Positions 8,492 to 61,392 of a stretch of 64,000 nt of DNA are shown one piece after another (within the stretch, counting starts at the first letter, position 1; each line of letters opens with the position of its first letter). This DNA is from an uncultured Candidatus Saccharibacteria bacterium. Lineage in GTDB: Bacteria; Patescibacteriota; Minisyncoccia; UBA6257; 2-01-FULL-56-20. Under the pieces are notes generated by a model. It was not told the DNA's origin. It saw nothing but the letters and a program-made list of their open reading frames with translations, and ran no database searches. The stretch covers positions 6,436 to 70,435 of the forward strand of contig CAYLWL010000003.1 in NCBI GenBank assembly GCA_964387675.1, given 5' to 3'. A program made the position numbers and the translations under genes.

Positions 8492-8505
8492 GGAAGATAA
8501 ACCAC

Positions 8506-8535: not shown

Positions 8536-8564
8536 TTTTCGTTATTCAATCTGTTTGTGCGACG

Positions 8565-22641: not shown

Positions 22642-22728
22642 TCACTAATAACGCGAATACCGGCAAATAACGCTAAGACGACTCGCATTATTACCTAAAA
22701 ACGATTAGCATTATTCGCGAATACTCCC
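22642..22728. repeat. Cargo-less (empty) copy of the AATAACGCGAATA / TATTCGCGAATACTCC inverted-repeat element that elsewhere carries the GxxExxY gene
   Basis: Both arms face each other with a ~50-bp spacer. The right arm ends at the rplV ATG. Confidence 0.6.
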
Positions 22729-23250: not shown

Positions 23251-23329
23251 GAAAACAGAAATGAGAAAGGAGAAATTAGGAACGCTTAACGACCTCATTT
23301 CTCATATCTAATCTCTCATCTCTAACACC
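23251..23329. repeat. Family E element, copy 4 (diverged)
   Basis: GAAATGAGAAAGGAGAAATTAGGAACG...CCTCATTTCTCATATCTAATCTCTCATCTC. Confidence 0.65.
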
Positions 23330-24001
23330 ATGGGACACAAAATTAATCCATTATCACTACGAGTCGGCGTCACGAAGAACTGGCCAGTCAGATGGTTTAT
23401 TAAAGGTAAGTACGCCAAGTTTTTGGAGGAGGACGAAGCGATACGGAACGTGATCAGGTTGAAAATCGGCCAGGCCGGCATTTCCGCGATCGAGATAGAA
23501 CGAACCCAAGGGAGCGTCAAAGTTTTCATCAAAGCCGCGAGGCCCGGGTTCGTAATCGGCCGAGGCGGAAAAGGCATCGAGGATCTGAACAAAGCAATAG
23601 AGAAGGCCTTGAAAAAGGTCCGCAAAGTAAAAACCGCGATTGCTTTAAGCGTGAACGTGGAGGAATTGAAGAGATCGGAAATCGCCGCGCCGTACGTCGC
23701 CCAGCAAATCGCCTGGGATCTCGAGAAGCGTCTGCCGTTCCGGAGAACGCTGAAAAAATATCTTGAAGGAATTATGCAAAACAGGGAAGTGAAGGGAGCG
23801 AAGATCATGATGTCGGGCAGATTGGACGGCAACGAAATAGCGAGGACGGAGTGGCTGGCCAAGGGGTCATTGCCTCTTCAGACATTCCGCGCCGACATCG
23901 ACTATGGAACATCCACCGCTTTTACGACCTATGGAACAATCGGAATAAAGGTGTGGATATATAAGGGCGAGATATTCGCTGACGCTCAAAATAAAAATTA
24001 A
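23330..24001 (+). CDS. rpsC: 30S ribosomal protein S3
   Basis: MGHKINPLSLRVGVTKNW..., with KH and S3-C domains. Confidence 0.9.
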   Translation: MGHKINPLSLRVGVTKNWPVRWFIKGKYAKFLEEDEAIRNVIRLKIGQAGISAIEIERTQGSVKVFIKAARPGFVIGRGGKGIEDLNKAIEKALKKVRKVKTAIALSVNVEELKRSEIAAPYVAQQIAWDLEKRLPFRRTLKKYLEGIMQNREVKGAKIMMSGRLDGNEIARTEWLAKGSLPLQTFRADIDYGTSTAFTTYGTIGIKVWIYKGEIFADAQNKN

Positions 24002-24113
24002 AAAATCAAAAATCAAGATGACAATGCAAAATGTAAAATTAAATAAATTAAAAGTCGTGTCCGCAGGACCCCTAAATTTTGCATTTTGATCTTTGCATTT
24101 TGCATTTACTGAT
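24002..24113. repeat. Family F element, copy 2
   Basis: Near-identical to 20237-20328. Confidence 0.7.
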
Positions 24114-24524
24114 ATGTTGATTCCAAAGAAAGTAAAACATCGTAAGTGGCAGAAAGGCCGCTCGAAGAGACGGCTTGTGGAAACGCGCGGTCTTACTTTG
24201 AATTATGGCCAATATGGTTTAAAATCCCTGGAAGCGGCGTGGCTCAATTCTCGCCAGATCGAGGCGGCGCGGAAAACCATAACGAATTTCTTGAAGCGCA
24301 GCGGCCGCCTGTGGATCAGGGTTTTTCCGGATAAACCGATCACTCAGCAAGCTCCGGAGAAAACGTTGGGCGGCGGCAAGGGCAGTGTCGAATATTATGT
24401 TTTTCCGGTGAGGCCGGGGAGGATTATTTTCGAGATTGACGGCGTTCCCAAAGAAACCGCCACCGAGGCGCTCCGGCTGGCTTCTTATAAACTGCCGTTC
24501 AAAAGCAGAATCATAACCAAATAA
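24114..24524 (+). CDS. rplP: 50S ribosomal protein L16
   Basis: MLIPKKVKHRKWQKGR... Start at the ATG at 24114. The ORF track's TTG at 24093 lies in the repeat. Confidence 0.9.
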   Translation: MLIPKKVKHRKWQKGRSKRRLVETRGLTLNYGQYGLKSLEAAWLNSRQIEAARKTITNFLKRSGRLWIRVFPDKPITQQAPEKTLGGGKGSVEYYVFPVRPGRIIFEIDGVPKETATEALRLASYKLPFKSRIITK

Positions 24525-24629
24525 CAAGCGAAATACTAATATACTAATTCGTGCGAATGATACTAATGGATACTAATTCGTATTATTTGTATCATTAGCA
24601 TGCATTCGTATATTGGTATCACATTATTC
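24525..24629. repeat. Family G element, copy 2
   Basis: Near-identical to 19565-19666. Ends at the rpmC start. Confidence 0.75.
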
Positions 24630-24836
24630 ATGAGAAAGAAAGAAATCCAAGAATTAAAAATGAAGCCCGCGGCCGAGCTCCAAAAGTTCCTGAAAGACGG
24701 ACGGGAACGGCTCCGCTCGTTGAAGTTCGATTTGGCCGCAGGCAAAGTGAAAAACGTGAAGGAGCTCCGCACGCTCAAAAAAGACCTCGCGAGAGCCAAC
24801 ACGTTCATACACGCTTCCCGGTCGGGGAATAAATAA
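24630..24836 (+). CDS. rpmC: 50S ribosomal protein L29
   Basis: MRKKEIQELKMKPAAELQKFLKDGRERLRSLKF. Confidence 0.85.
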   Translation: MRKKEIQELKMKPAAELQKFLKDGRERLRSLKFDLAAGKVKNVKELRTLKKDLARANTFIHASRSGNK

Positions 24837-24840
24837 ACTT

Positions 24841-25107
24841 ATGGAACAAGTCAAAAAAAGAAAAATAACCGGCGTCGTGGTCAGCGACAAAATGATGAAA
24901 ACGAGAGTGGTTGAGGTCAAACGATCGAAGAAGCACCCGAAGTATCTCAAGTACTACACGGTGACGACCAAGTTTAAAGCCCATGACGAAAAGAACGATT
25001 ACCACGTGGGCGATGTGGTTATTATGGAAGAAACCAGGCCTCTCTCGAAAGAGAAGAGGTGGCGCATTATTGGAGTAGTCGCTAATAATGCGAATAAAAA
25101 GAGGTAA
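24841..25107 (+). CDS. rpsQ: 30S ribosomal protein S17
   Basis: ITGVVVSDKMMKTRVVEVKR...YHVGDVVIMEETRPLSKEKRW. The last 8 codons (ANNANKKR) are encoded by the AATAACGCGAATA repeat arm. Confidence 0.9.
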   Translation: MEQVKKRKITGVVVSDKMMKTRVVEVKRSKKHPKYLKYYTVTTKFKAHDEKNDYHVGDVVIMEETRPLSKEKRWRIIGVVANNANKKR

Positions 25108-25160
25108 TAACGCGAATCCGCGTTATTAAATAAAAATTAGCGTTATTCGCGAATACTACA
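25078..25160. repeat. Second cargo-less copy of the AATAACGCGAATA/TATTCGCGAATACT element, overlapping the rpsQ 3' end and ending at the rplN ATG
   Basis: GCTAATAATGCGAATAAAAAGAGGTAATAACGCGAATCCGCGTTATTAAATAAAAATTAGCGTTATTCGCGAATACTACA. Confidence 0.6.
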
Positions 25161-25529
25161 ATGATCCAAGAACGCTCAATACTCAAGGTGGCCGACAACA
25201 GCGGCGCGAAGATCGTGCGGTGCTTTAGAATTCTGGGCGGCACAAGAAGGCGATACGCGAGGATCGGCGATATCATCGTGACCTCCGTTCAGGTGGCCGA
25301 GCCGCGCAAGACCATCAAGAAAAAAGACATTGTGAAGGTTCTGATCGTTCGGCAGAGAGCTCCGTTGCGGCGCAAAGACGGCTCGTATATCCGTTTCGAC
25401 GACAACGCCGTCGTGGTGATAGATGCCAAGCGCGAGCCGGTCGCGACAAGAATCTTCGGCCCGATGCCGCGCGAGCTCAAAGAAAAAGGGTTCGATACCC
25501 TTATGACAATGGCGGAAGAAATCGTATAA
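25161..25529 (+). CDS. rplN: 50S ribosomal protein L14
   Basis: MIQERSILKVADNSGAK... Confidence 0.95.
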   Translation: MIQERSILKVADNSGAKIVRCFRILGGTRRRYARIGDIIVTSVQVAEPRKTIKKKDIVKVLIVRQRAPLRRKDGSYIRFDDNAVVVIDAKREPVATRIFGPMPRELKEKGFDTLMTMAEEIV

Positions 25530-25630
25530 GCGAGATACTAATATACTAATTCGTGCGAATGATACTAATGAATACTAATTCGTATTATTTGTATCATTAG
25601 CATGCATTCGTATATTGGTATCACATGTAT
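25530..25630. repeat. Family G element, copy 3
   Basis: Near-identical to 19565-19666. Confidence 0.75.
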
Positions 25631-25936
25631 ATGAACATTAAAAAAGGTGACCAAGTAAAAATTCTTTCCGGAAAAGACCGGGGCAAAACCGGAGCCGTGT
25701 TAAACGTTTTCCCGAAAGACGGGAAAATTTCGGTGGAAGGATTGAACGTGTATAAAAAACGGGTGCGCCCGAAGCGCCAGGGGCAGAAGGGCGAAACGGT
25801 TTTAGTGCCGAGGTCTTTTTACGCTTCCAAGGCGATGGTGATCTGTTCGAATTGCAAAGAGCCGGCTCGTTTGGGTCATCGTTTGGAAGGCAAGAAGAAG
25901 GTCCGCTACTGCAAAAAGTGTAAAGCGGCGATATAG
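25631..25936 (+). CDS. rplX: 50S ribosomal protein L24 with C-terminal C4 zinc-ribbon-like extension
   Basis: KOW motif KKGDQVKILSGKDRGKTG. The C-terminus CSNCKEPARLGHRLEGKKKVRYCKKCK replaces the usual L24 C-terminal half. Confidence 0.85.
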   Translation: MNIKKGDQVKILSGKDRGKTGAVLNVFPKDGKISVEGLNVYKKRVRPKRQGQKGETVLVPRSFYASKAMVICSNCKEPARLGHRLEGKKKVRYCKKCKAAI

Positions 25937-25944
25937 TAAGAAAC

Positions 25945-26463
25945 ATGACACAGCACAAATCTAAACAATCAAATCTTGGCTTTGAAGCAACAAAGTTTCT
26001 TGAGAAAGTTGTGATTGACGTTGGCGTGGGACGCTTGAGCGGCCAGCCGAATTTCGAAGAAAAAGCGCTCTCTCAAATCACGAAAGATCTCTCTCTCGTT
26101 GCTGGTCAGAAGCCGCAGGTGAGGCGCGCGAAGAAGTCAATCGCCGGATTCAAAACGAGGGAAGGCCAGATCGTCGGTTTAAGAGTAACGCTCCGAAAAA
26201 AGAAAATGGTTGATTTTTTCGAGCGGCTCATTAGAATAGTATTGCCGCGCGTGCGAGATTTCAGGGGGCTCGATCCGAACATTATCGATCAAGGCGGCAC
26301 GTTGAACATCGGCCTCAAGGAATCAGTTGTTTTTCCGGAAATCAACCCGGAGCAGTCGCCCATTTCATTTTCGCTGGGAATCAGCGCGGTTCCAAGAATA
26401 AAAAATCGGGAAAAATCAGTCGAACACTTCAGAGCCCTCGGGGTACCATTAAAAAAGAAATGA
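25945..26463 (+). CDS. rplE: 50S ribosomal protein L5
   Basis: FEATKFLEKVVIDVGVG...RDFRGL. Confidence 0.9.
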   Translation: MTQHKSKQSNLGFEATKFLEKVVIDVGVGRLSGQPNFEEKALSQITKDLSLVAGQKPQVRRAKKSIAGFKTREGQIVGLRVTLRKKKMVDFFERLIRIVLPRVRDFRGLDPNIIDQGGTLNIGLKESVVFPEINPEQSPISFSLGISAVPRIKNREKSVEHFRALGVPLKKK

Positions 26464-26533
26464 GAAATAAAGAAATGAGAAATTAGGATTTTCGTCCTCA
26501 TGTCTCATCTCTTATGCCTCATATCTTGTCACC
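26464..26533. repeat. Family E element, copy 5 (diverged)
   Basis: GAGAAATAAAGAAATGAGAAATTAGG...CCTCATGTCTCATCTCTTATGCCTCATATC. Confidence 0.65.
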
Positions 26534-26719
26534 ATGCCTAAAACATCCTGGATAGCAAGAAGTAAAAAACAGCCGAAACATAAAACACGCGACGTGAATC
26601 GGTGTTTTCGATGCGGCAGAAAACGCGGCTATATGCGGGATTTTAATCTTTGCAGGATTTGTTTTCGGGAAATGGCGAGCCATCAAGAGATACCCGGAGT
26701 AAAAAAAGCAAGCTGGTAA
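26534..26719 (+). CDS. rpsN: 30S ribosomal protein S14 (type Z, zinc-binding)
   Basis: 61 aa. [23 protein letters not shown]. Confidence 0.9.
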
Positions 26720-26723
26720 ATTC

Positions 26724-27101
26724 ATGTATTACGATTTATTGCCAAAACTGAAGAATGCCGAAGCCGCGGGGAAAGAAACGGTTTTGGCGCCTTTTTCCAA
26801 GATGGATCTGAGCGTCTGCAAAATTCTTGCCGACGCCGGTTATATCAAAGACGCCAAAGAAAAAACACTGGGCCGCAAGAGATTTATCGAAATCCGGATG
26901 TTCGGCAGAAGAAAGCGCCTCATCAACGGCGTGAAGATTATGAGCAAGCCAAGCAGGCATTTGTATTTTTCGTATACCGACCTCCGCCCGGTGAAAAGCG
27001 GCCACGGGATCGGCGTCATATCGACTTCCAAAGGGATGATGACGCAAAAAGAAGCCAGAAAAAAGAAGGTCGGCGGGGAATATTTGTTCCAAATATGGTG
27101 A
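26724..27101 (+). CDS. rpsH: 30S ribosomal protein S8
   Basis: YYDLLPKLKNA...ILADAGYIKD...GIGVISTSKGMMT. Confidence 0.9.
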   Translation: MYYDLLPKLKNAEAAGKETVLAPFSKMDLSVCKILADAGYIKDAKEKTLGRKRFIEIRMFGRRKRLINGVKIMSKPSRHLYFSYTDLRPVKSGHGIGVISTSKGMMTQKEARKKKVGGEYLFQIW

Positions 27102-27196
27102 ATAGCTAGAAATCAGATATGAGATATGAGACATGAGAAATGAGGGACGAAATAAAAACCTAATTTCTCATTTCTAATTACTCATCTCTAACTACC
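27102..27196. repeat. Family E element, copy 6
   Basis: GATATGAGATATGAGACATGAGAAATGAGGGACG...CCTAATTTCTCATTTCTAATTACTCATCTCTAAC. Confidence 0.75.
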
Positions 27197-27745
27197 ATGA
27201 GCCGTTTAATCAAAAAACCAGTTCAAATATTGCCCGGCGTCCAGGTAAAAATAGACGGCGACTTTTTGGTTTTTAACGGCCCGAAAGGCGAGAACCGGCT
27301 CAGGATACCGGCATCGGTTGAGTTAAAAATTGACGCGGAGAACATTTGGCTCACGGCGAAAACGGAAAGCGAGCTCAATAAGGCCGTGTACGGAACAACG
27401 TGGTCGCTCATCAGGAATTCCGTGAATGGCGCCGCGAACGGCTTTATGAAGGTTTTAGAGATTGAGGGGGTTGGCTACCGCGCGGCTCTTGAGGGCAAGG
27501 AATTGGTTCTCTCGCTGGGTTATGTGAATCCGGTGCGCGTCAAGGTGCCGGACGGCATCGCAATCGAGGTTGAGAAAAACGTCATAAAAGTTTCCGGACA
27601 CGATAAAGATTTAGTCGGCAGAACCGCCTCGACTATCCGGGCCCTCAAAAAACCGGAGCCGTACAAGGGAAAGGGAATCCGATATCGGGGAGAAATTATC
27701 CGGAGGAAGGTCGGCAAGAAAGCGGGAGCGACGGCCGCCACATAA
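27197..27745 (+). CDS. rplF: 50S ribosomal protein L6
   Basis: MSRLIKKPVQILPGVQVKIDGDFLVFNGPKGE. Confidence 0.9.
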   Translation: MSRLIKKPVQILPGVQVKIDGDFLVFNGPKGENRLRIPASVELKIDAENIWLTAKTESELNKAVYGTTWSLIRNSVNGAANGFMKVLEIEGVGYRAALEGKELVLSLGYVNPVRVKVPDGIAIEVEKNVIKVSGHDKDLVGRTASTIRALKKPEPYKGKGIRYRGEIIRRKVGKKAGATAAT

Positions 27746-27835
27746 GAAATAAGACATGAGAAATGAGAGATGAGGAACGGAACACGTAAAAACCTAATTT
27801 CTCATTTCTAATTACTCATCTCTATTATATATACC
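27746..27835. repeat. Family E element, copy 7
   Basis: GACATGAGAAATGAGAGATGAGGAACGG...CCTAATTTCTCATTTCTAATTACTCATCTCTATT. Confidence 0.75.
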
Positions 27836-28189
27836 ATGAACCCCAGAAAACGTCTCAACAAAATACGGACGCGACGAACGGCAAGAACACGGGCCAAGAT
27901 TTTCGGCACGGCGAAAAAGCCGCGTCTTGCCGTGTCGCGCAGTAACCGTTATATTTATGCCCAGTTGATCAACGACGAAGCTGGACGAACCGTGGTTCAT
28001 GGTTCGGGCCAGGAGGTGAAGGGCAAGAAGCCGAAAACGGAAGTTGCCGCCTTGGTGGGAGAGTTGATCGGAAAAAGGGCGGTGGAAAAAGGGGTTACCT
28101 CGGCGGTTTTTGATCGCCGCGCGTATAAGTATCATGGTCGAATTAAGGCGCTGGCCGAAGGAGCGCGAAAGGCCGGACTTAAGTTATAA
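27836..28189 (+). CDS. rplR: 50S ribosomal protein L18
   Basis: [23 protein letters not shown]. Confidence 0.9.
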
Positions 28190-28271
28190 GACATCAGAAA
28201 CTAGACATCAGAAATCAGAACGTAGCCAACCCAAACTAATTACTGATAACTGATAACTAATCCCTATTAAT
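28190..28271. repeat. Diverged family E-like element (CATCAGAAAT...CTGATAACTGAT variant)
   Basis: GACATCAGAAACTAGACATCAGAAATCAGAACG...TAATTACTGATAACTGATAACTAAT has the same architecture with CAG/CTG in place of GAG/CTC. Confidence 0.55.
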
Positions 28272-28736
28272 ATGTTTCGACGTCCCGAGAAAAACTTAAA
28301 AAAAGAAGAGTTCAAAGATAAGGTGTTGGATCTGCGGCGGGTTACTCGCGTTGTTGCCGGAGGAAAACGCTTTCGTTTTCGCGCCACCGTGGTGCTTGGC
28401 GATGAGAAAGGCAGGGTGGGCATAGGCGTGGCGAAGGGGCTCGATGTCGCTCAATCCGTGGCGAAAGCGAAAACGGCGGCAAATAAGAATATGATGAGGA
28501 TTCCCCTTAAAGACGAACGGACGATAGCTCACGAGGTGTACGCGAAATACAGCGCCGCCAAGGTGCTCTTGAAGCCCGCCGGTTCCGGCCACGGTCTCCG
28601 GGCCGGAGGAGCGGTGCGTTCCGTGTTGGCCTTGGTCGGCATAAAAGACGCTACCGCGAAATGTCTTGGCAGGACCCCCAACAAACTGACGAATGCCATG
28701 GCAACGCTCGAGGCGTTGAAAAAATTAAAAGCATGA
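28272..28736 (+). CDS. rpsE: 30S ribosomal protein S5
   Basis: RVTRVVAGGKRFRFRATVVLGDEKGRVGIGVAKG. Confidence 0.9.
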   Translation: MFRRPEKNLKKEEFKDKVLDLRRVTRVVAGGKRFRFRATVVLGDEKGRVGIGVAKGLDVAQSVAKAKTAANKNMMRIPLKDERTIAHEVYAKYSAAKVLLKPAGSGHGLRAGGAVRSVLALVGIKDATAKCLGRTPNKLTNAMATLEALKKLKA

Positions 28737-28822
28737 AAAGGAATTAGACGAGAGACATTAGACATTAGGAACGACTTACATAAAACCTAATTTCTCATTT
28801 CTAATTACTCATCTCTATTACC
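28737..28822. repeat. Family E element, copy 8 (occupies the position where rpmD/L30 is normally found)
   Basis: AGACATTAGACATTAGGAACGACTTACATAAAACCTAATTTCTCATTTCTAATTACTCATCTCTATT. Confidence 0.7.
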
Positions 28823-29260
28823 ATGCAGCTGCACGAGCTCAAAAAATTCAGAAATAAAAACAAAAAACGCATCGGCCGCGGCGGCAAGCGCGGCAGTTAT
28901 TCGGGGCGCGGCGTGAAGGGTCAGAAATCGAGAGCGGGGAGGAGGATTCGCCCGGCAGAAAGAGATTTGATTATACGCCTGCCGAAGCGGCGCGGTTTTC
29001 GAAACAAACCCAAGAGTCCCAAGCCGATGGTTTTCAACCTGAAAGATTTGTCGAAGTATATCAAGACCCATTCCGAGAAAGGGAAAAGTTTGGTTATCGA
29101 TAAAACGTTCTTGCGGGAAGTCGGTCTTGTGCCGACCCATTATCGCGGTGAAGTGAAAATCTTGGGAATGGGAGAGGTGTATGCCCCCGTGAAAGTTCAA
29201 GGATTAAAATTGTCGAAGAGTGCTAAGATGAAGGTTGAGAAAGTAAGATATGAGAAATGA
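28823..29260 (+). CDS. rplO: 50S ribosomal protein L15
   Basis: KRIGRGGKRGSYSGRGVKGQKSRAG. Confidence 0.9.
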   Translation: MQLHELKKFRNKNKKRIGRGGKRGSYSGRGVKGQKSRAGRRIRPAERDLIIRLPKRRGFRNKPKSPKPMVFNLKDLSKYIKTHSEKGKSLVIDKTFLREVGLVPTHYRGEVKILGMGEVYAPVKVQGLKLSKSAKMKVEKVRYEK

Positions 29261-29323
29261 GATATGAGGGACGGAACGTATAAAAACCTAATTTCTCATC
29301 TCTAATTACTCATCTCTATTGCC
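29261..29323. repeat. Family E element, copy 9
   Basis: GATATGAGAAATGAGATATGAGGGACGG...CCTAATTTCTCATCTCTAATTACTCATCTCTATT. Confidence 0.75.
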
Positions 29324-33664: not shown

Positions 33665-35110
33665 ATGCTTGACGACCTCATTAACGAACGGTTAAAAAAA
33701 CTCGACGAGATCAAGAAGGCCGGCCTTGATCCGTATCCTGCGAGCGCCGCGAGAACCTTGGAAATTGCGGAGGCGCGCAAGAAGTTTGACGAGTTGAGCG
33801 CGAGCAAAAAGAGCGTGGTGTTGGCGGGGCGCCTTATGAGTATGCGGGATCAGGGCAATATTTCTTTTTTGGATCTGGCCGACGAGAGCGGGAAAATCCA
33901 GATCGTTTTCAAAAAGGATATTCTGTCGAAGTTCGATTTCTGGAAAGATGTTTTGGATATAGGCGATTTCGTTGAGGCCGGCGGCGTTCTTTTTAAGACG
34001 CAGAAAGGCGAGGAAAGTTTGGAGGTCCACGATTTTCGCATGCTCACTAAATCGCTTCGTCCGATACCGAGCGAGTGGTACGGCGTGCAGGATATAGAGA
34101 CACGCCTTCGCAAGCGGTATTTGGATTTGATCGCCAACAAGGAAACGCGGGAGTTATTCAGAAAAAAAGCCGTTTTCTGGCAGACCATTCGGAATTTTAT
34201 GATCAGGCAGGGATTTTTGGAGGTGTGGACGCCGGTTCTCGAAAACATTCCCGGCGGCGCGGACGCCGAGCCGTTTGTTACTCACCACAATGCTCTAGAC
34301 AGGGATTTTTACCTGCGCATTTCGCTCGAATTGCCGCTCAAGCGACTGCTTGTCGGCGGCTACGACAAGGTCTTCGAAATCGGCCGGCTTTTCAGAAACG
34401 AGGGTATCGACCGCGAGCATTTGCAGGAATATGACGATATGGAATTTTACTGGGGCTACGCCGATTACAAAGATGGCATGAAGTTTGTGGAAAAGTTGTT
34501 CAAGGCGGTCGTTAAAAACGCCGTCGGTTCGATGGAAACCGAATATGAGGGCGCCAAAATCAACTGGGACGGGAAGTGGCCAAAAGTTGATTATTTCTCG
34601 GCGTTCAAAAAAGAAGCGGGCTTGGATTTGAACAAAGTTAATGAAGATGCGTTAAGAAAAAAAGCTCGGGATTTGGGGGTTGCCGTTGACGTTACGTCGG
34701 GCAAGGGGCGACTCATAGACGCGATTTACAAAAAAACCGTAAGGCCAAAACTAATCCAGCCGTGTTTTTTGGTCGGCCATCCGGTGGAAATATCGCCCTT
34801 GGCGAAAGCGGACTCCAAGAATCCCAAGAAAGTTTTGCGTTTTCAGGTTGTGGCGGGAGGCACGGAATTGGGTAACGGTTTTTCAGAGCTCAATGACCCG
34901 ATTGATCAAAAAGAGCGTTTTCAGGCGCAAATGAAGTTGCGCGAAGCTGGCGACAAGGAGGCGCAGATGCTGGACGAGGATTTTGTGGAAGCGTTGGAGT
35001 ACGGCATGCCACCGGCGGTGGGCTTCGGCGTGAGCGAGCGACTGTTCGCGGTGTTGATGAATAAGCCCGTGAGAGAGACGGTGATTTTTCCTCCGATGCG
35101 TTTGGAGTAA
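33665..35110 (+). CDS. lysS: Lysyl-tRNA synthetase (class II)
   Basis: OB anticodon-binding N-terminus. Class II motifs FRNEG, and motif 3 near ERLFAVLMN. Confidence 0.9.
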   Translation: MLDDLINERLKKLDEIKKAGLDPYPASAARTLEIAEARKKFDELSASKKSVVLAGRLMSMRDQGNISFLDLADESGKIQIVFKKDILSKFDFWKDVLDIGDFVEAGGVLFKTQKGEESLEVHDFRMLTKSLRPIPSEWYGVQDIETRLRKRYLDLIANKETRELFRKKAVFWQTIRNFMIRQGFLEVWTPVLENIPGGADAEPFVTHHNALDRDFYLRISLELPLKRLLVGGYDKVFEIGRLFRNEGIDREHLQEYDDMEFYWGYADYKDGMKFVEKLFKAVVKNAVGSMETEYEGAKINWDGKWPKVDYFSAFKKEAGLDLNKVNEDALRKKARDLGVAVDVTSGKGRLIDAIYKKTVRPKLIQPCFLVGHPVEISPLAKADSKNPKKVLRFQVVAGGTELGNGFSELNDPIDQKERFQAQMKLREAGDKEAQMLDEDFVEALEYGMPPAVGFGVSERLFAVLMNKPVRETVIFPPMRLE

Positions 35111-35111
35111 T

Positions 35112-35572
35112 CGCGAATAACGCGAATAATCGGATGAATAACGCGAATAGTAAAATAGTCCTGCCAGAATTAAGTTACTCCATAATCGGAGCCGCCTTTA
35201 GAGTTTTTAATGAATTGGGGTGGGGATTTTCAGAAAAACATTATCAAGGTGCGCTCGCGAAGGAATTAGAAGATGCGGGTCTGCTATTTCGCCGAGAGGT
35301 TTATATCCCCTTCACTTACAAAAGTTCAACCATAGGTCGTTACTTTGCCGATTTCATTGTTAACGATAAGATTCTCCTAGAACTTAAAGTAGTTCCAAAA
35401 TTTGGATACGTTCATTTACATCAGGCATTGGGTCACTTGCATAGTGCAAAGTTGAAACTAGGAATATTAATCTACTTTACACGCGAAGGAATAAAGTATC
35501 GGAGGGTTGTTAATCCGGATGTATAATAATTCGCGTTATTTAATTAAAGATTCGAGTTATTCGCGATTACTC
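35112..35572. mobile_element. Inverted-repeat-bounded cassette carrying a GxxExxY (PD-(D/E)XK) gene
   Basis: Left arm CGCGAATAACGCGAATAATCGGATGAATAACGCGAAT contains the cargo start codon. The right arm is its reverse complement (ATTCGCGTTATTTAATTAAAGATTCGAGTTATTCGCG) and ends at the ATG of the next gene. Empty copies are at 22642-22728 and 25078-25160. Confidence 0.55.
35134..35526 (+). CDS. GxxExxY family protein (PD-(D/E)XK nuclease fold)
   Basis: 130 aa with a GALAKELEDAG motif. The N-terminal MNNANSK is encoded by the repeat arm. Confidence 0.8.
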   Translation: MNNANSKIVLPELSYSIIGAAFRVFNELGWGFSEKHYQGALAKELEDAGLLFRREVYIPFTYKSSTIGRYFADFIVNDKILLELKVVPKFGYVHLHQALGHLHSAKLKLGILIYFTREGIKYRRVVNPDV

Positions 35573-35573
35573 C

Positions 35574-35993
35574 ATGGCTAAGGTGATGGTTTTCGGTGTT
35601 TTCGATGGCATTCATGAGGGCCATCGAGCGCTTTTTCGAGAAGCAAAAAAATACGGCAAATACTTGGTCGCCGTGGTCGCGCAAGACAGGACGGTCGAAT
35701 ACTTGAAGGGCCATCTCCCGAAATATACTTTGGCGAAAAGAATCGAGGACTTGCAAAAAGAAAAACTGGTTAATGAAGTGGCGCTCGGCGACGCCGAGCC
35801 GGGAAGTTATGAAGTCATACTCAAGCATCGGCCGGACGTTCTCGCGCTCGGTTATGACCAGGAAGATTTCAAAGAAAACCTCGAGGAAAATCTGGAAAGA
35901 TTCGATTGGCGGCCGGAGATCGCGGTCTGTCGCTCCTACGAGCCGGAGAAATATCACAGCCACCTGCTTCATTTTGGCAAGTATAAAAATTAA
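35574..35993 (+). CDS. Cytidylyltransferase-like nucleotidyltransferase (HxGH motif; FAD synthetase N-domain-like)
   Basis: FGVFDGIHEGH, then a YLVAVV Rossmann-like segment. 139 aa. Confidence 0.55.
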   Translation: MAKVMVFGVFDGIHEGHRALFREAKKYGKYLVAVVAQDRTVEYLKGHLPKYTLAKRIEDLQKEKLVNEVALGDAEPGSYEVILKHRPDVLALGYDQEDFKENLEENLERFDWRPEIAVCRSYEPEKYHSHLLHFGKYKN

Positions 35994-52452: not shown

Positions 52453-52819
52453 AAATGAAAACTCGCGGTCTCCAAGAACGGAGCATATTCGCGGCGTTGG
52501 GAATCCTCCTCTTCTTGACTTTCGCGTTCCTTTCTTTTTCCCTCTAATCCAATCTTTTCCGTTATAACATAATATTATATTATAATGGAAAAGAGAAAAA
52601 AGAGAACGAGAAAAAGAATAGAATAAGAGGGACGCATCCGGATGTTCACTGTCCGTTTGCTATAATAGAAGCATGTACCTTTCTGACACCCCTTCGACTC
52701 CGCTCCCTCGACAGAACTAGGGACAAGTCGGGGCAGGCCCTTCGATAGAGCTCGGGGCAAGCCCCTAGGCAATCGCATCTTCATACTATGAAGAAAAGAT
52801 CATCCACAACCATTCCTTC

Positions 52820-52840
52820 GAGAGAGAGAGAGAGAGAGAG
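52820..52840. repeat. (GA)10 dinucleotide microsatellite 8 nt upstream of the likely start codon of the giant fibre gene
   Basis: GAGAGAGAGAGAGAGAGAGAG read directly from the sequence. Confidence 0.9.
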
Positions 52841-52847
52841 TAACACC

Positions 52848-55800
52848 ATGCCCCGACTCCGCTCTCTACAACTCGTTTACCTCGCCTCCTTCCTCCTCTC
52901 TTCATTCCTCTTTGCCCCTCCACTCTTGGCCGCCCCTCCTTCCTCCCCGTATACCCCCGGAGAGACCCTGAATCCCACCTGCTCCCCCGGAGACGCGAAT
53001 TGCACGGTCGTCGCTCCCCCCGCGGGAACCGGCTCCGCGGGACTCCTGACCTACTGGAGCGCCTCCTCCACCGTCTCATCCTCCCTCTCCCTCTTCTGGG
53101 ACAACCCCAACATACGCCTCGGCATCGGCACCTCCCAGCCCTCCTCCACCTTTCACATCATCGCGGGAACGACGGGCGCGACCACCCTGCAACTGATGGG
53201 ACTCCCCAACCAGACCGGGAATCTTCTCACGGTCGGATCATCCTCCGGACAACGCTATTTCACCATCTCGTCCCTCGGACTTGCATCGTCTACCGAGTTT
53301 CGCTCTCCGAGTTCGACGATCGATACCCTCTTCCTTACCTCGGCGTCCTCCACCAACCTCTCCCTCTCCGGCTACGGCCTCTTTCCCACGCTCCTTGCCC
53401 AGAACGCCGTGGGACTCGGCTCTCTTTCCACTTCCACCTCCCTCGTTTTCATCCAGGGGACGCAGGTGGCGTCAACCACACTCAACCTCCGAGGCACAAC
53501 CAACCAAACCGCCAATCTCCTCACGATCGCGAGTTCAACGGGAATCAACTTCTTCACGATTGGCCCAACTGGCCTCGCTTCCTCCACCGAGTTCAGGGCC
53601 AACTCGTCCACCATCGCCTCGCTCTACGATTTCAACGGCAACAAGTACGCCACCTCGAGCGCCTTCACCGCTGGCGTTGACACCCAGCTCTTATTTGGCC
53701 AACTCGGAGGAGGAGCAACCTCGAGCATTGCTTTCACGATCACCACCTCCACCTCCCAACTCCTCTTTTCCGGCTCCAATGTCTCCATCGCTCCGGTCGG
53801 AACCTCCACCTCCCTCGTCTTCCTGCAGGGAAGCCAGATAACATCCACCACGCTCAATATCTTCGGCGCCGCGGCCCAGACCGCGTCTCTCCTCTCCATC
53901 TCCTCCAGCACCGGCATCCCTCTTTTCAACATCAATGCCATAGGCCAAGTAGCCATCGCCACCTCTACCTACCCCTCATCGAGCACCCTGCTGACCATCG
54001 CCTCCTCAAGCCAGATATTCAATATCTCCGCGGGAGGCAACATCATGATTGGGACCTCGACCTCTCCCAATGCCGCGCTTCTGCAGATCGCGACGACCAC
54101 CAATATCTTCACGATCTTGAGCAACGGGAGAGTGGGAATCGGAACCTCGACGCCGGGTTCCGCCCTTGACGTGAAAGGCACCTTGCGTCTGTCGGGTTCC
54201 GCGTCGGGATATGTGGGATTCGCTCCAGCCGCCGCGGCGGGAGCAACCACCTATACCCTCCCTTCCGCCGACGGCTCATCGGGACAAGTCCTTACCACCG
54301 ACGGCTCGGGGACTTTGTCCTGGACGACGAAAGTAGAGGGCACCTCCCAGGACTTCAAAGGACTTTCCTTGAGAACCCATCCCAACGCGAACATCGCCAC
54401 CACCACGGTCTATCTTGACCACGCAGACGAGATCGTGATGGATACCGGGAACCGGGTGGCAACCTGGGACGACCTGTCGGCTGACATCACCGTATCAGGA
54501 GCCGGAGGACTGGATACCGGTTCTGAAGCCGCTTCCACTTGGTATGAGATTTATGCGATACGAAAATCATCTGATGGCACAAAGAATCTCTTGCTTCATA
54601 GGGCCAAGGATTATTTTTTGGATGAGGATTTTTCAACTGGCGATGATCAGTCACAAGGGATTCGGCGCACGACTAATAGTGTTACTTCTGTTGCTCAACA
54701 GTTTGAGGTTGATACTTCCGGGCTTGTTGAATTTGTCGACGTATATCTTCTTCGCGCCGGATCGGTAAGCGGACGGTTGTGGGCCGAGCTCTATGCAGAT
54801 AGCGGAGGAGCGCCAACGGGTTCAGCGCTTGCCACTTCTGACAAAATCGACGCCTCACTTATATCGACTAGTGCCCAATGGATACGTTTGCCGTTCCGTT
54901 CGCCTGTTACATTGAGTGCCACGCCGACAATTTACCATCTTGTGCTGACAGGCGACTGGACACAAAGTGATACGGTAACTATCAGCTGGCGCGCAGACAG
55001 CACATCGCCGACCTATGCTCGCGGATCATTTGAGCGTAAAGAATCTGGCAGTTGGGTAGAATATTCCGATATTGATGTGTTGTTCAAAATCTATGTCACC
55101 CGCAACGACACCTCGGTCACCATGCCGACCGGCTATGACCAGAAAGCGAAGGTGGGGTATGTATATAACGATAGCGGGAGTAACTTTAGCCCATTCGTGG
55201 CCAATGATCGGCGCGTAACCTATCAAACTACGTTCAATACGGGCAGCATCACGGCGACGATTATGACGTTAACCGACGTGTCATCATCACTGCCACCAGT
55301 TGCCGTCAGCGACGTGTTCGGCACGGCAGAGAACAGCGCGGTCAACGATTGGCTGCGTATTCTGGGCGTCCCAGACGGCTATTCGGCGAATGGCTATCCA
55401 ATTTCTGTCCCGACTGCAAATGCCACAGTATTTGCGGGAGGTATCTCAACTGAATATCAAGCGTTATATTTTCAGGTTAGTTCTGGAACTGGAATATTCC
55501 GACTGCGAGGCTACACTTGGGGCTCCACCGGCGGCGCGGACCTGGCTGAAGAATATCTGGTGGATGACGAAAGCATCAACGCCGGAGACATCGTGTCTCT
55601 GACCTCTTTTGGTACCAACTATGTCGAGAGAGCCGCCGCCTCCTCTTCATACCCGGTCCTCGGCATCGTCTCCACCAAGCCGGGCATAGTCCTCAAGGAC
55701 TGGTCATACAGCCCCCGGAATACGAGGAATGTGGCTCTCACCGGCCGCGTCCCGGTCAAGGTTACCGAAGAGAACGGCCCGATCAAGACAGGGGATCGCC

Positions 55801-56435
55801 TCACCCTCTCGGCAACGACCCCCGGCTATGCGATGAAGATGACCGAGCCGGGCCAATCAATAGGTATTGCTATGGAATCGTCGGAGAACAAAGACCCCGA
55901 CGCTACGGTCCCGACGCAAGGATCGGGACAGGTCGGGACGGGCAAAATCCTCGCCTTCATCAATTTGACCTATTGGATACCGGATATATCTGCATCAACA
56001 TCCACCGATGCTTCCGCTTCCACCTCAACTGTTGCATCAACCGACTTCTCACTCGACGGCCTGATGAAATACATCGTGAACAAACTCAAAAATGTTCTGG
56101 AGATCGTCTTCGAGAAAGGACTCCTCAAGGTGGCGCATCTGATTACGGATCTTGTGGAGACGAAAAAGGTTGTGACGGAAGAAGTGGTGACCGAAAAACT
56201 GGAATTGAAAGACGCGGCAACGGGCGGGGTGTATTGCGTCAAGATGCTGAACGGTCAGTTGGCGAGCGTGTCGGGAGGATGCGGGTCAGACGCGCAATCT
56301 TCAACCTCGACGGCAGAATCCGATTCCACTTCCAGCTCTGCCACGAGTTCCGTTTCGGACTCCGACAATTCCGATTCTGCCGCAAGTTCAACCGATTCGA
56401 CGGCCGATACTAACAGCACTTCGACTGAGCCGTAA
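52848..56435 (+). CDS. Giant (~1195 aa) surface fibre-like protein with Ser/Thr-rich repeats and acidic Ser-rich C-terminus
   Basis: The start at MPRLRSLQLVYLASFLLSSFLFAPPLLAAP (signal peptide) is preferred over the upstream ATG at 52788. It has repeated ...LLTIASSTGINFFTIGPTGLASSTEFR... modules, motifs shared with the 50098 protein, and a C-terminus of SDSTSSSATSSVSDSD. Confidence 0.55.
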   Translation: MPRLRSLQLVYLASFLLSSFLFAPPLLAAPPSSPYTPGETLNPTCSPGDANCTVVAPPAGTGSAGLLTYWSASSTVSSSLSLFWDNPNIRLGIGTSQPSSTFHIIAGTTGATTLQLMGLPNQTGNLLTVGSSSGQRYFTISSLGLASSTEFRSPSSTIDTLFLTSASSTNLSLSGYGLFPTLLAQNAVGLGSLSTSTSLVFIQGTQVASTTLNLRGTTNQTANLLTIASSTGINFFTIGPTGLASSTEFRANSSTIASLYDFNGNKYATSSAFTAGVDTQLLFGQLGGGATSSIAFTITTSTSQLLFSGSNVSIAPVGTSTSLVFLQGSQITSTTLNIFGAAAQTASLLSISSSTGIPLFNINAIGQVAIATSTYPSSSTLLTIASSSQIFNISAGGNIMIGTSTSPNAALLQIATTTNIFTILSNGRVGIGTSTPGSALDVKGTLRLSGSASGYVGFAPAAAAGATTYTLPSADGSSGQVLTTDGSGTLSWTTKVEGTSQDFKGLSLRTHPNANIATTTVYLDHADEIVMDTGNRVATWDDLSADITVSGAGGLDTGSEAASTWYEIYAIRKSSDGTKNLLLHRAKDYFLDEDFSTGDDQSQGIRRTTNSVTSVAQQFEVDTSGLVEFVDVYLLRAGSVSGRLWAELYADSGGAPTGSALATSDKIDASLISTSAQWIRLPFRSPVTLSATPTIYHLVLTGDWTQSDTVTISWRADSTSPTYARGSFERKESGSWVEYSDIDVLFKIYVTRNDTSVTMPTGYDQKAKVGYVYNDSGSNFSPFVANDRRVTYQTTFNTGSITATIMTLTDVSSSLPPVAVSDVFGTAENSAVNDWLRILGVPDGYSANGYPISVPTANATVFAGGISTEYQALYFQVSSGTGIFRLRGYTWGSTGGADLAEEYLVDDESINAGDIVSLTSFGTNYVERAAASSSYPVLGIVSTKPGIVLKDWSYSPRNTRNVALTGRVPVKVTEENGPIKTGDRLTLSATTPGYAMKMTEPGQSIGIAMESSENKDPDATVPTQGSGQVGTGKILAFINLTYWIPDISASTSTDASASTSTVASTDFSLDGLMKYIVNKLKNVLEIVFEKGLLKVAHLITDLVETKKVVTEEVVTEKLELKDAATGGVYCVKMLNGQLASVSGGCGSDAQSSTSTAESDSTSSSATSSVSDSDNSDSAASSTDSTADTNSTSTEP

Positions 56436-56512
56436 GTGAAGGATTTTGTCCCTCCGCCACGGCTTTGCGCCGCGGCGGATTTGTTTTATTGTAGGTAGGT
56501 ATTTTCATTTGT

Positions 56513-57790
56513 ATGCATCGAGAAAACTTATATAAAAACCTCCCCGATTCTCCGGGCGTATATCTTATGAAGGATGCGTGCGGGGCCGTGATCTATGTCG
56601 GCAAGGCCGGAAATTTGAAAAGACGGGTATCGAGTTACTTCGCGAGAGCCCACGATTTGCGGATCGAGCGATTGGTAAACGAAATTAAAAAGATCGACTG
56701 TCAGAAAACGGACACCGCGCTCGAGGCCTTGATTTTAGAGTCCAAGCTCATCAAACGGCTTAACCCCAAGTTCAATGTCAAAGAAAAAGACGACAAAAGT
56801 TTTTTGTACGTCGCGATTACCAAAGAAAAGTTTCCGCGCGTGCTTTTGGCGAGAGGGTCAAGGGTCAAGAGTCAGGGGTCAAGAATTGATGATTGGTATG
56901 GACCCTTTACTTCGGCCGGCAGTATCCGCGAGGCATTGAAGATTTTGCGCCGGATTTTCCCGTGGAGCAACCACATAGTGACAAGGGACATGAGACAAGC
57001 GACAAGGGACGCCACCAAGCCATGTTTCGATTACGAGATCGGCCTTTGTCCGGGAACCTGCATCGGCGCGATAAGCAGCAAAGATTATTTGAAAAATATC
57101 AACCGGCTCAAATTGTTTTTTGCGGGCAAGAAGCTTCGGGTACTGGGGTCTTTGCAAAAGGAAATGAAAGCGGCGAGCAAGCGCCTGGAATTCGAGAAGG
57201 CCGAAAAACTCCGCCGCCAGATATTCGCCCTTCAACATATTCGCGACACGGCGCTGATTAATGAAGAGCCGTTTCCACATACTACCTACTACCTACCACA
57301 TACTTTTCGTATTGAGGGCTACGACATCTCCAACATCTCCGGCGCTTCCGCCGTCGGCGCGATGGTGGTGTTCAGGGGCGATCATCCGCGGAAAGACGAG
57401 TATCGGAAGTTCAAAATAAAAACAATCCACGGTTCTCATGATGTCGGCATGCTCCGCGAAGTTCTCGGGCGTCGATTTGGAAATTGGAAATTGGAAATTG
57501 GAAATTCGAAGAGATGGCCTCTGCCCGACCTCATTCTTGTCGACGGCGGCATTCCCCAGGTGAACGCCGCGCGATCGGTGCTTCGCGAATATGGCCTTGC
57601 CATCCCGATTGTGGGCATAGCCAAGGGGCCAACGAGAAAAAGGAATGACGTTATCGGGATTATTCCAGCGGGCATTAGTCGAAAAACGCTTATCCGCGTG
57701 CGTGACGAAGCGCACCGCTTCGCCATCGGTTATCACAAAAAACTCCGCGGCAGAGAATTCATTCCTCGAACTAACGAACGGTCACTTTGA
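56513..57790 (+). CDS. uvrC: Excinuclease ABC subunit C, short form lacking C-terminal (HhH)2 domain, with several repeat-derived in-frame insertions
   Basis: GIY-YIG (GVYLMKDACGAVIYVGKAGNLKRRVSSY), a UVR domain (LEFEKAEKLRRQIFALQHI), and an RNase H-like endonuclease region. Insertions are at 56850-56885, 56975-57015, 57278-57303 and 57479-57506. Confidence 0.8.
   Translation: MHRENLYKNLPDSPGVYLMKDACGAVIYVGKAGNLKRRVSSYFARAHDLRIERLVNEIKKIDCQKTDTALEALILESKLIKRLNPKFNVKEKDDKSFLYVAITKEKFPRVLLARGSRVKSQGSRIDDWYGPFTSAGSIREALKILRRIFPWSNHIVTRDMRQATRDATKPCFDYEIGLCPGTCIGAISSKDYLKNINRLKLFFAGKKLRVLGSLQKEMKAASKRLEFEKAEKLRRQIFALQHIRDTALINEEPFPHTTYYLPHTFRIEGYDISNISGASAVGAMVVFRGDHPRKDEYRKFKIKTIHGSHDVGMLREVLGRRFGNWKLEIGNSKRWPLPDLILVDGGIPQVNAARSVLREYGLAIPIVGIAKGPTRKRNDVIGIIPAGISRKTLIRVRDEAHRFAIGYHKKLRGREFIPRTNERSL
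57479..57506 (+). repeat. (GGAAATT)4 heptanucleotide tandem repeat inside uvrC coding sequence
   Basis: Read directly from the sequence. It encodes GNWKLEIGNS. The unit length is not a multiple of 3. Confidence 0.9.
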
Positions 57791-60830: not shown

Positions 60831-60983
60831 ATGGGCGGCGTACCGGTAAAACATCACTCAAAAGGAAAAGTAGGCCGGAGACGGTCTCATTTGGCGCTCA
60901 AAAAGCAGCGTCTTTTCGTTTGTGCAAACTGCGGCGGGCCAAAGGTGGCGCATCGGGTTTGCAGACAGTGCGGGAAGTCGTAG
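60831..60983 (+). CDS. rpmF: 50S ribosomal protein L32 (zinc-binding form); below the 60-aa ORF-track cutoff
   Basis: Manually translated: MGGVPVKHHSKGKVGRRRSHLALKKQRLFVCANCGGPKVAHRVCRQCGKS. It matches the bacterial L32 pattern RR.H.AL......C.NCG.PK..HRVC..CG. Confidence 0.8.
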   Translation: MGGVPVKHHSKGKVGRRRSHLALKKQRLFVCANCGGPKVAHRVCRQCGKS

Positions 60984-61392
60984 CAAAGAGCAAAGGGCCG
61001 AGGGCAAAGAGCATACAGCATGTTTAGATTTGAAAACTTAGAAATTTGGCGCTTGGGCGTTGATTATGGCAAAGATTGTTACAAAATTTCCTCATCTTTT
61101 CCCGGGCATGAAAGATTCGGGTTGGGTGACCAGCTTCGTCGAGCCGCTATCTCCATTTCCAACAATATCGCAGAAGGATCTGTTGGCTCCACGGCAAACT
61201 TTAAAAAATATCTCGTCACCGCATTGGGTTCAACTCTAGAAACTGTCAATATATTGAATTTTGCTTGCGAAGTTGGTTACATAACCGCCAATATTAAGGA
61301 AGAAATGTATGGTAGGGCAGAGTTGTTAATTAAGAAGTTAAGAGCGTTTTCTAAAGTTTTAAACCCTTAGCTCTTTGCTCTTCGCTCTTTGC
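60983..61392. mobile_element. Second inverted-repeat-bounded cassette carrying a four-helix-bundle gene, inserted with no spacer between rpmF and nusB
   Basis: Left arm GCAAAGAGCAAAGGGCCGAGGGCAAAGAGC (60983-61012). Right arm GCTCTTTGCTCTTCGCTCTTTGC (61370-61392) is its imperfect reverse complement. Solo arm copies at 11963-11995 and 13209-13232. Confidence 0.55.
61020..61370 (+). CDS. Four-helix-bundle protein (23S rRNA intervening-sequence protein family), second copy
   Basis: 116 aa. LEIWRLGVDYGKDCYKI..., ISNNIAEGS and GSTLETVNIL are paralogous to the protein at 2743-3114. Confidence 0.8.
   Translation: MFRFENLEIWRLGVDYGKDCYKISSSFPGHERFGLGDQLRRAAISISNNIAEGSVGSTANFKKYLVTALGSTLETVNILNFACEVGYITANIKEEMYGRAELLIKKLRAFSKVLNP

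Follow-up and report, generated by a model that had tools for sequence, protein, structure and literature searches.

Heptanucleotide tandem repeats (STRRs) were reportedly described from cyanobacteria by Mazel et al. in 1990, and Ogata et al. are said to have found, in 2000, Rickettsia palindromic elements (RPEs) residing in frame within protein genes. The TAACTGA repeats of Beggiatoaceae, cyanobacteria, and Bacteroidetes come in sets of 2 to 6 copies, lie mostly between genes, and enter open reading frames (ORFs) only in the stop-free orientation (PMC4679880). The 23S rRNA intervening sequence of Coxiella combines an ORF for an S23p four-helix-bundle protein with a stem of 28-bp inverted repeats that RNase III cleaves, and carries tandem GACAGAT heptamers whose copy number varies between strains (PMC4990558). 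Here we analyze the uvrC gene of an uncultured Candidatus Saccharibacteria bacterium (Patescibacteria), which bears four in-frame heptanucleotide arrays, together with the whole stretch of 64,000 nucleotides in which it lies (contig CAYLWL010000003.1, positions 6,436 to 70,435; hereafter the window, whose numbering is used throughout). This uvrC is a hotspot for a heptamer class and otherwise an ordinary, lineage-typical gene. The account that we consider probable, although by no means secure, is that a short UvrC has acquired genome-wide heptamer modules by copying and tolerates them as near-neutral passengers.

The ORF at 56513 to 57790 is predicted to encode an intact UvrC with all catalytic residues present. 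The gene, its domains, and the four tracts, called with Tandem Repeats Finder (TRF), are as follows.

Positions 56513 to 57790, + strand: uvrC, short form, 425 aa, with a GIY-YIG domain, Cys-rich loop, UVR motif, and RNase H-like endonuclease domain, and without the helix-hairpin-helix pair (HhH2).
Positions 56552 to 56776, + strand: GIY-YIG 3'-incision nuclease domain, aa 14–88 (PF01541; matches to PDB 1yd6 and 1ycz).
Positions 56854 to 56883, + strand: tract 1, AGGGTCA (GGGTCAA) ×4.3, 82% matches, 30 nt, aa 115–124, peptide GSRVKSQGSR.
Positions 56977 to 57010 (TRF 56980 to 57010), + strand: tract 2, GACAAGG ×4.4, 79% matches, degenerate, aa 156–166, peptide VTRDMRQATRD.
Positions 57140 to 57238, + strand: UVR (UvrB-binding) motif, aa 210–242 (PF02151, 34.5 bits versus a cut-off of 21.5).
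Positions 57277 to 57304 (TRF 57280 to 57304), + strand: tract 3, TACTACC ×3.6, 83% matches, aa 256–264, peptide HTTYYLPHT.
Positions 57305 to 57727, + strand: RNase H-like 5'-incision endonuclease domain, aa 265–405 (PF08459, E 2.7e-41; PDB 3c65 and 2nrt).
Positions 57477 to 57510, + strand: tract 4, TTGGAAA ×4.9, 96% matches, with a perfect (GGAAATT)4 core at 57479 to 57506.

An earlier sequence-only reading of this DNA had described uvrC as a mosaic whose conserved domains are broken up by in-frame repeat tracts, and TRF agrees with it on the presence and position of all four. The reading had also taken the first tract for an octamer and counted three or four different repeat families. TRF instead resolves the first tract as a heptamer, GGGTCAA, so that all four share period 7, and by their common period and size of about 30 nt they are best described as a single class of heptanucleotide arrays that pervades the genome. 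The units of tracts 1 and 2 are one base apart (GTCAAGG and GACAAGG). Three of the four tracts are degenerate, and the core of tract 4 is perfect.

The reading frame is maintained, as had been proposed: the protein aligns with its orthologues on either side of each tract. Tract 1 occupies a loop between two beta strands and adds a net of about 5 codons relative to orthologues; tract 2 sits in the loop that runs from the invariant H154 to C171 in the Cys-rich motif; tract 3 falls in the linker joining the UVR and endonuclease domains; and tract 4, read as GNWKLEIGNS(K), is a net insertion of 30 to 33 nt (10 to 11 codons) between the helix at 310–323 and the strand at 340–344. Length variation among UvrC orthologues gathers at a few sites (after LLARG, between H154 and C171, in the UVR-endonuclease linker, and after RRF), and these include all four tract positions. 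Mapping the inserts onto an alignment and a structure, the check that the sequence-only reading had called for, places them at the variable loops. In an AlphaFold2 model built from the orthologue alignment (mean predicted local distance difference test [pLDDT] 73.8), coil with pLDDT below 50 is found at 120–123, 153–185, 253–263, and 327–332, as well as at 91–94 and the C-terminal 417–425, and the first four of these segments coincide with the tracts at aa 115–124, 156–166, 256–264, and 322–333. The model thus places all four tracts in predicted surface loops or linkers.

The position of tract 2 merits particular attention. In Escherichia coli UvrC, an Fe-S cluster is held by four cysteines with a spacing of x11, x7, and x3. 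The window protein has H154-x16-C171-x7-C179-x3-C183 (56972 to 57061, aa 154–183), with an invariant His154 presumably sitting where the E. coli protein has its first cluster Cys. By this analogy, tract 2 would lie within the first inter-ligand loop of a putative Fe-S motif, a loop of some 10 to 45 residues, depending on the orthologue.

The same kind of array is abundant across the window. We counted 25 period-7 tracts versus 0.1 expected from Markov shuffles, whereas periods 2–6, 8–13, and 15 yielded 0 to 4 tracts each; period 14 also yielded 25, which we take to be the same arrays because the repeat finder lists them at both periods. A laxer scan returned 39 tracts, among which 19 pairs have identical units (1.7 expected), so that the units cluster in families. 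Most arrays lie at gene boundaries, often as inverted pairs folding as hairpins (folding z of −3.8 at 27100–27200 and −4.1 at 20960–21060), and roughly seven in the 64 kb are clearly intragenic, four of them in uvrC. Every intragenic unit tested is free of stop codons on the sense strand, six of the seven boundary or intergenic units tested contain a stop codon on the + strand, and GGAAATT is stop-free whichever of the six frames is read.

In these respects the window arrays resemble the STRR and TAACTGA repeats: the unit is 7 nt, each set has a few copies, sets are many, the period is in clear excess, and the arrays are mostly intergenic, often beside start or stop codons, and enter ORFs only when stop-free. 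Both groups are also phylogenetically patchy and have no known mechanism. They differ in that the window holds many unit families, a module sharply fixed at about 30 nt, and arrays that often form paired hairpin arms; moreover, arrays recur in frame in loops of housekeeping proteins (UvrC, EF-G, LeuRS, SecA, LepA, and GuaA), and the hosts are Patescibacteria.

To follow the tracts through related genes, we compared codon alignments of the window uvrC with those of three relatives, P0002 (69% identical and syntenic), P0005, and P0024, at the four sites.

Site 1: window (GGGTCAA)4; P0002 degenerate AGTCAnn; P0005 none; P0024 (AAAAGCT)4.
Site 2: window (GACAAGG)4.4; P0002 (GACAAGA)4, near perfect; P0005 (GAAGCAA)4, perfect; P0024 an in-frame insert of about 100 nt.
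Site 3: window (TACTACC); P0002 (CTAAATC)4; P0005 (GGAAATT)4; P0024 (CTAAATT)4.
Site 4: window (GGAAATT)4; P0002 none; P0005 a non-heptamer insert; P0024 none.

In the aligned sequences, orthologues re-use the same UvrC loops for other units. Three of the four site-3 modules measure exactly 10 codons between conserved flanks, and modules at this site appear to have been exchanged at constant length. Tract 2 and its P0002 counterpart are 82% identical both overall and at third codon positions, versus a third-position identity of 45% elsewhere in the gene, and we therefore regard tract 2 as old and common by descent with (GACAAGA)4; tract 4, which is absent from the closest relatives (P0002 and P0024), is taken to be recent. 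We also drew a wider set of 80 uvrC loci of Patescibacteria from the genome collection. Period-7 tracts there number 2.7 per 10 kb in uvrC versus 0.65 in 1.1 Mb of flanks, a 4-fold difference, and the orthologue tracts recur near query positions of about 120, about 245–255, and about 345–365.

These comparisons also bear on whether the tracts might be an assembly or sequencing artifact, or the gene a decaying pseudogene. The window comes from a metagenome-assembled genome, and a related locus, L057, does have a scaffolding artifact; however, the window ORF is intact with all catalytic residues present, and like tracts stand in frame at orthologous loops in independent NCBI, JGI, and Logan assemblies, so that we give this explanation next to no weight. 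The artifact at L057 (Colwellbacteria) concerns an apparent 430-nt insertion at 7140–7270, which we had considered as a full cassette inside uvrC and rejected, as it proves to be a scaffold gap filled with N together with a second copy of the 5' end of uvrC.

Arrays of this class are also found in essential genes, beginning with one in the window itself.

Positions 13209 to 13238, + strand: EF-G array, perfect (AGCAAAG) ×4.3, 30 nt, in frame, aa 78–87, in the variable loop before DTPGH.

LepA at metagenome locus L107 carries (AATTTCC)4 in the loop equivalent to that of the EF-G tract, and the contig of the closest relative (L081) has (AAATCCG) ×4.4 at 8763–8793, within a called arginyl-tRNA synthetase gene (7350–9092). 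At least 120 metagenome contigs contain the exact (GGAAATT)4 28-mer; among the 120 listed, it lies deep inside a long ORF in 88, in the orientation encoding GNWKLEI in 31 and ISNFQFP in 57, and array length among the matches listed peaks sharply at 30 to 33 nt. The same 120 contigs (804 kb) contain 317 period-7 tracts versus 7 to 52 for the other periods tested (5–11). Ten host ORFs could be identified: LeuRS (four times), SecA, LepA, GuaA, HypF, a YYY-domain membrane protein, and another UvrC. Identical modules are thus found in essential genes of many organisms.

The LeuRS genes are the most informative. Three of them (L091, L116, and L145) carry an identical AATTTCC ×4 array, AATTTCCAATTTCCAATTTCCAATTTCCA, at the same codon after the motif SEGAxI, although the proteins are 44% to 49% identical and third-position identity is 29% to 38%, i.e., saturated. 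A fourth (L105) has (GAAATTC)4 at that codon and, at aa 691, a second array, (AATTTCC)4. The LeuRS model aligns with L145 over its whole length as one unbroken stretch, so that the array there takes the place of native residues and adds no length. These identical arrays point to copying or nucleotide-level maintenance rather than drift. The unit spectrum is skewed as well: in 1.24 Mb from 83 loci fetched via uvrC homology, a set not selected for the GGAAATT unit, 21% of 105 period-7 units are within 1 mismatch of GGAAATT, versus 2.8% expected from composition.

The obvious competing explanation is that each tract grew in place by polymerase slippage on a native repeat, unrelated to the other arrays, with 7 nt as the favored register. 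Heptanucleotides are reported to be the most abundant class of long simple sequence repeats (SSRs) in many prokaryotes, for which a polymerase-register explanation has been offered (Mrazek et al. 2007, as presented in PMC4679880); in addition, orthologues differ in unit at the same site, and the native site-4 sequence is partly like the GGAAATT unit. Local growth sits poorly, however, with unit families common to distant loci, the strong skew to the GGAAATT superfamily over the 83 loci, an identical array at the same codon of LeuRS genes diverged to saturation, a module size fixed at about 30 nt in coding and noncoding DNA alike, and the site-3 modules, whose units differ but which fill exactly 10 codons between shared flanks. 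On the strength of the LeuRS arrays, the unit skew, the fixed size, and the site-3 swaps, we prefer copying of preformed modules or nucleotide-level maintenance, and regard independent local slippage as unlikely. We infer that the modules were copied in rather than grown locally.

The copying account can be spelled out as follows. The gene is taken to encode a working UvrC of the short form standard in Paceibacteria-like Patescibacteria, its HhH2 tail lost in the lineage, and four of its surface loops or linkers each bear a module of about 30 nt, or about four tandem heptanucleotides. The modules belong to a genome-wide array class akin to cyanobacterial STRRs, most members of which form hairpin arms of about 28 to 32 nt in this genome, at gene boundaries and around intervening-sequence-like cassettes with a four-helix-bundle or PD-(D/E)XK gene. 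New modules would be copied in from existing arrays, by gene conversion, patch replacement, or micro-transposition, and not grown locally. Inside a gene, a module would persist only if its unit is stop-free on the sense strand, its length keeps the frame, and the loop tolerates insertion, and those that persist would simply be translated into short low-complexity peptides.

Several observations weigh against this account. The best relative is only 69% identical at the amino acid level, so that insertion events and copy-number stability can be judged only indirectly. The native site-4 sequence of relatives (AAG AAT GAC TGG) resembles part of the GGAAATT unit and might have seeded slippage; a perfect four-unit tract can slip, and the Coxiella heptamers do vary in copy number between strains (PMC4990558). 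The metagenome search was seeded with the exact 28-mer, and its counts refer to that one unit order. Finally, among inserts in 75 orthologues, period 7 was the best period in 17 of 106 versus about 10% of controls, a weak enrichment from which it follows that many loop inserts are not, or are no longer, recognizable heptamer arrays; we accordingly do not claim that all UvrC loop inserts derive from heptamers.

A bolder version of the copying account, which we advance tentatively and consider a good deal less likely, is that the heptamer modules, especially those of the GGAAATT superfamily, constitute an active micro-element of Patescibacteria with its own sequence specificity. A dedicated copying or patch-replacement process, perhaps tied to the Avd-like and PD-(D/E)XK cassettes with arms of the same units, would write it into loops of housekeeping genes, swap it there, and keep the arrays homogeneous at the nucleotide level across lineages with saturated synonymous sites. 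If true, this would be a new way of remodeling core proteins in ultra-small bacteria. Even the simpler version, if the modules are indeed copied and not grown, would rank them with the smallest self-propagating or templated DNA elements known, and they would supply lineage-specific protein loops to organisms noted for their unusual insertions in rRNA and proteins. The behavior of the class in Patescibacteria, with fixed 30-nt modules, in-frame placement in core genes, and identical DNA across saturated genes, appears undescribed; our literature search found no report of heptanucleotide or simple sequence repeats in Patescibacteria, nor of the (GGAAATT)4 array or its peptides.

Two further systems invite comparison. 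Like RPEs, the window modules are dispersed noncoding repeats that are translated inside housekeeping proteins at fold-compatible surface positions; RPEs, however, are palindromes of 100 to 150 bp with a family consensus, whereas the window modules are tandem heptamers of about 30 nt that are translated but do not form palindromes by themselves. Some orthologues, such as P0024, do have an RPE-like insert in frame at site 2. This insert of about 100 nt (locus L083, protein P0024; also in proteins P0003, P0006, P0021, and P0100) is stop-free, shows by eye inverted-repeat-like arms with GCGAAT-type units, and adds 25 to 45 residues between FPWSxH and RPC, in the manner of an RPE. The tandem repeats of Borgs (PMC9879509) are similar in being recent repeats in ORFs that add low-complexity, probably disordered segments. 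They reportedly arise locally and have ORF units divisible by three, whereas here the unit is 7 nt, the frame is kept through total length, and an identical array recurs in unrelated genes and organisms.

Heptamer arrays also form the arms of two cassettes in the window; a third, of another type but the same layout, has inverted arms with a period of 9 and is listed with them.

Positions 2701 to 3190, + strand: cassette 1, 123-aa four-helix-bundle gene at 2743 to 3114 (23S_rRNA_IVP/bAvd-like, PF05635, E 2.9e-38).
Positions 60982 to 61392: cassette 2, four-helix-bundle gene at 61020 to 61370 (PF05635, about 120 aa), arms AGCAAAG/CTTTGCT.
Positions 35103 to 35574: cassette 3, PD-(D/E)XK_3 gene at 35134 to 35526, 130 aa (PF13366), arms of 46 nt with period 9, CGCGAATAA.

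The arms of cassette 1 (2701–2733 and 3163–3190) are 28-nt inverted heptamer arrays (GTAGTAG/CTACCTA) that are 93% complementary, and the arms of both four-helix-bundle cassettes measure about 23 to 28 nt. With their PF05635 ORF of about 120 aa in the loop of a stem of about 28 bp, these cassettes resemble the 23S intervening sequences of Coxiella and Leptospira; unlike those, they lie between protein genes rather than in rRNA. The cassettes and the intragenic tracts share units: that of the EF-G tract is the arm unit of cassette 2, and that of tract 3 is the arm unit of cassette 1, with 8 matches to ACTACCTACTACCTAC in the window versus 0.01 expected, all in tract 3 and the two arms. The suggestion that a uvrC tract is a solo arm of the four-helix-bundle cassette is thereby borne out for tract 3 at the level of unit identity. 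Among the uvrC tracts, only tract 3 shares its unit with a resident cassette; tracts 1, 2, and 4 have no cassette partner in the window.

The resemblance does not extend to structure. Unlike 23S intervening sequences, the uvrC tracts are single arms with neither a partner nor an ORF: no inverted partner arm for any tract was found within uvrC, there is no complementary stem of about 28 bp enclosing an ORF or loop, and the local RNA fold at the four tracts is not significant (z −1.4 to +1.1). The tracts are therefore at most remnants of cassettes. A consistent linkage of (GGAAATT)4 to four-helix-bundle or PD-(D/E)XK genes was likewise rejected, as only 7 of the 120 listed contigs contain either gene. 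The cassettes nonetheless offer a new setting in which the role of 23S intervening-sequence proteins, through their Avd-like relatives, could be tested.

The shared units raise the question of whether the tracts have a function of their own, either as RNA sites pairing in trans with cassette arms or the 5' leader (as RNase III substrates or by masking the ribosome-binding site) or as selected peptide loops. Tract 3 is complementary to the 5' arm of cassette 1 (2701–2733) on the same strand and partly so to GTAGGTAGGTA at 56494–56504, just 5' of the start codon; in 23S intervening sequences, RNase III acts on stems of the same size as those of the cassettes (PMC4990558); and synonymous positions in tract 2 and the LeuRS arrays are more conserved than expected. 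Yet no local structure is detectable at the tracts, the leader match spans only 8 to 9 nt, host genes hold arrays in both orientations, and units differ between orthologues at the same site, which leaves no conserved peptide or pairing partner. We consider such a function improbable.

The presence of the class in essential genes is also what makes the tracts look like tolerated passengers, and it bears directly on the proposal, made in the sequence-only reading, that tract 4 is a potential mutator switch. The mechanical half of that proposal is correct: the frame runs into a stop codon at aa 347 if one unit is lost and at aa 380 if one is gained, D344 and H401 are removed in both cases, and three-unit changes keep the frame. 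The further step, a programmed contingency locus in which (GGAAATT)4 is kept as a reversible frameshift switch of nucleotide excision repair (a mutator phase), is not supported. The perfect four-unit core would lend itself to such a role, and precedents exist in the strain-variable heptamers of the Coxiella intervening sequence (PMC4990558) and the 7-bp repeats that drive phase variation of Haemophilus influenzae hmw genes (PMC8262952). Against it, equally perfect arrays sit in EF-G in the window and in LeuRS, SecA, LepA, and GuaA elsewhere, genes whose essentiality would make an off state lethal, rather than only in dispensable or adaptive genes. None of about 26 uvrC tracts in the 80 orthologous loci is frameshifted, so no off alleles appear among these relatives; two loci gave split matches, one (L027) with a frameshift away from any tract and the other being the L057 scaffold artifact. 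Three of the four uvrC tracts are degenerate, and the absence of tract 4 from the nearest relatives indicates that it is not a conserved regulatory feature. Typical contingency-locus tracts are longer than the roughly four units seen in tract 4. Searching metagenome contigs for the two flanks of tract 4 separated by 12 to 42 nt gave no match and no other contig of the strain.

The window tracts and SSR contingency loci such as H. influenzae hmw1A, with its 7-bp repeats (PMC8262952), are thus alike in that the unit is not a multiple of three and its gain or loss shifts frame or expression, but the window tracts are short, and their hosts are core or essential genes, not genes for surface or restriction-modification functions. 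We judge a programmed switch to be very unlikely, and infer that the modules are near-neutral passengers for which the frameshift risk is a cost. With uvrC being an ordinary short UvrC of its lineage, the repeat class that it exposes is the more interesting result. In practice, such tracts can mislead gene callers and distort marker-gene alignments and phylogenies, and they provide natural markers of strain-level variation.

The gene itself conforms to its lineage. The 425-aa protein scores 366 bits against the UvrC equivalog TIGR00194 (NCBIfam; cut-off 285) and only 59 bits against the Cho model (cut-off 367), and the solved UvrC fragments 1yd6, 3c65, and 2nrt match its two nuclease domains. 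In the GIY-YIG domain, Y28, R38, E71/E76, and N88 are invariant among orthologues and Y17 is nearly so; in the endonuclease domain, the D-D-H residues D271, D344, and H401 are invariant. The GIY-YIG, UVR, and RNase H-like components of a UvrC are therefore all present, and only the C-terminal HhH2 is missing. Its absence, noted in the sequence-only reading, was confirmed: profile searches with Pfam and NCBIfam found no HhH family in the window UvrC, and the protein stops about 20 aa past the endonuclease domain.

This absence is, however, no peculiarity of the window gene. The 120 best homologues (Paceibacteria-type, 386–458 aa) have the same end point and no HhH Pfam domain, and all C-termini in a 27-sequence alignment fall within about ten residues of one another. 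The best homologues are 59% to 69% identical to the query, those with names belonging to Paceibacterota, Liptonbacteria, or Parcubacteria. A tail of about 55 aa with HhH is retained in UvrC of Saccharibacteria and Omnitrophota (L062, L064, L067, L068, and L076). Judging from these alignments, loss of HhH2 is the norm of the whole Paceibacteria-type clade. The tail does not appear to have moved to a separate ORF nearby, another possibility that had been raised: tblastn with five Saccharibacteria and Omnitrophota HhH tails detected none within the 64-kb window (best E 0.36). Cho lacks the entire C-terminal endonuclease half of UvrC. The window protein resembles Cho and other truncated homologues in being a UvrC-family nuclease without part of the canonical C-terminus, but it retains the endonuclease half and has lost only the HhH2 tail.

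The start of the gene and its surroundings yielded several minor observations. The database copy (P0001, 407 aa) begins at Met19 and is thus annotated 18 aa short (56513–56566); we favor the ATG at 56513 because orthologues keep the N-terminus LYKNLPDSPGVYLMKD. A Shine-Dalgarno-like GTAGGTAGGTA lies at 56494–56504, 9 to 19 nt 5' of the start codon, and is complementary over 8 to 9 nt to tract 3 (TACCTACC), by chance or possibly through long-range pairing. Further upstream, at 56440–56490, a GC-rich hairpin (CCGCCACGG...CCGCGGCGG) followed by TTTGTTTT separates uvrC from a 1215-aa ORF; it looks like an intrinsic terminator and would leave scant space for a uvrC promoter. The 1215-aa ORF (52788–56435) is rich in Ser, Thr, and Ala, has a signal-like N-terminus, and probably encodes a large surface protein. 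The downstream neighbor of uvrC is convergent.

Elsewhere in the window, at 20960–29320, nearly all gene pairs of the ribosomal-protein operon (L3, L2, L6, L15, and others) are separated by heptamer hairpins (AGAAATG... / ...CTCATTT). Several genes of this operon end within an array whose unit gives a stop codon in all three frames, and at 20209–20233 the gene for ribosomal protein L3 takes its final codons from an (AAAAATC) ×3.6 array and thus has a repeat-encoded C-terminal tail.

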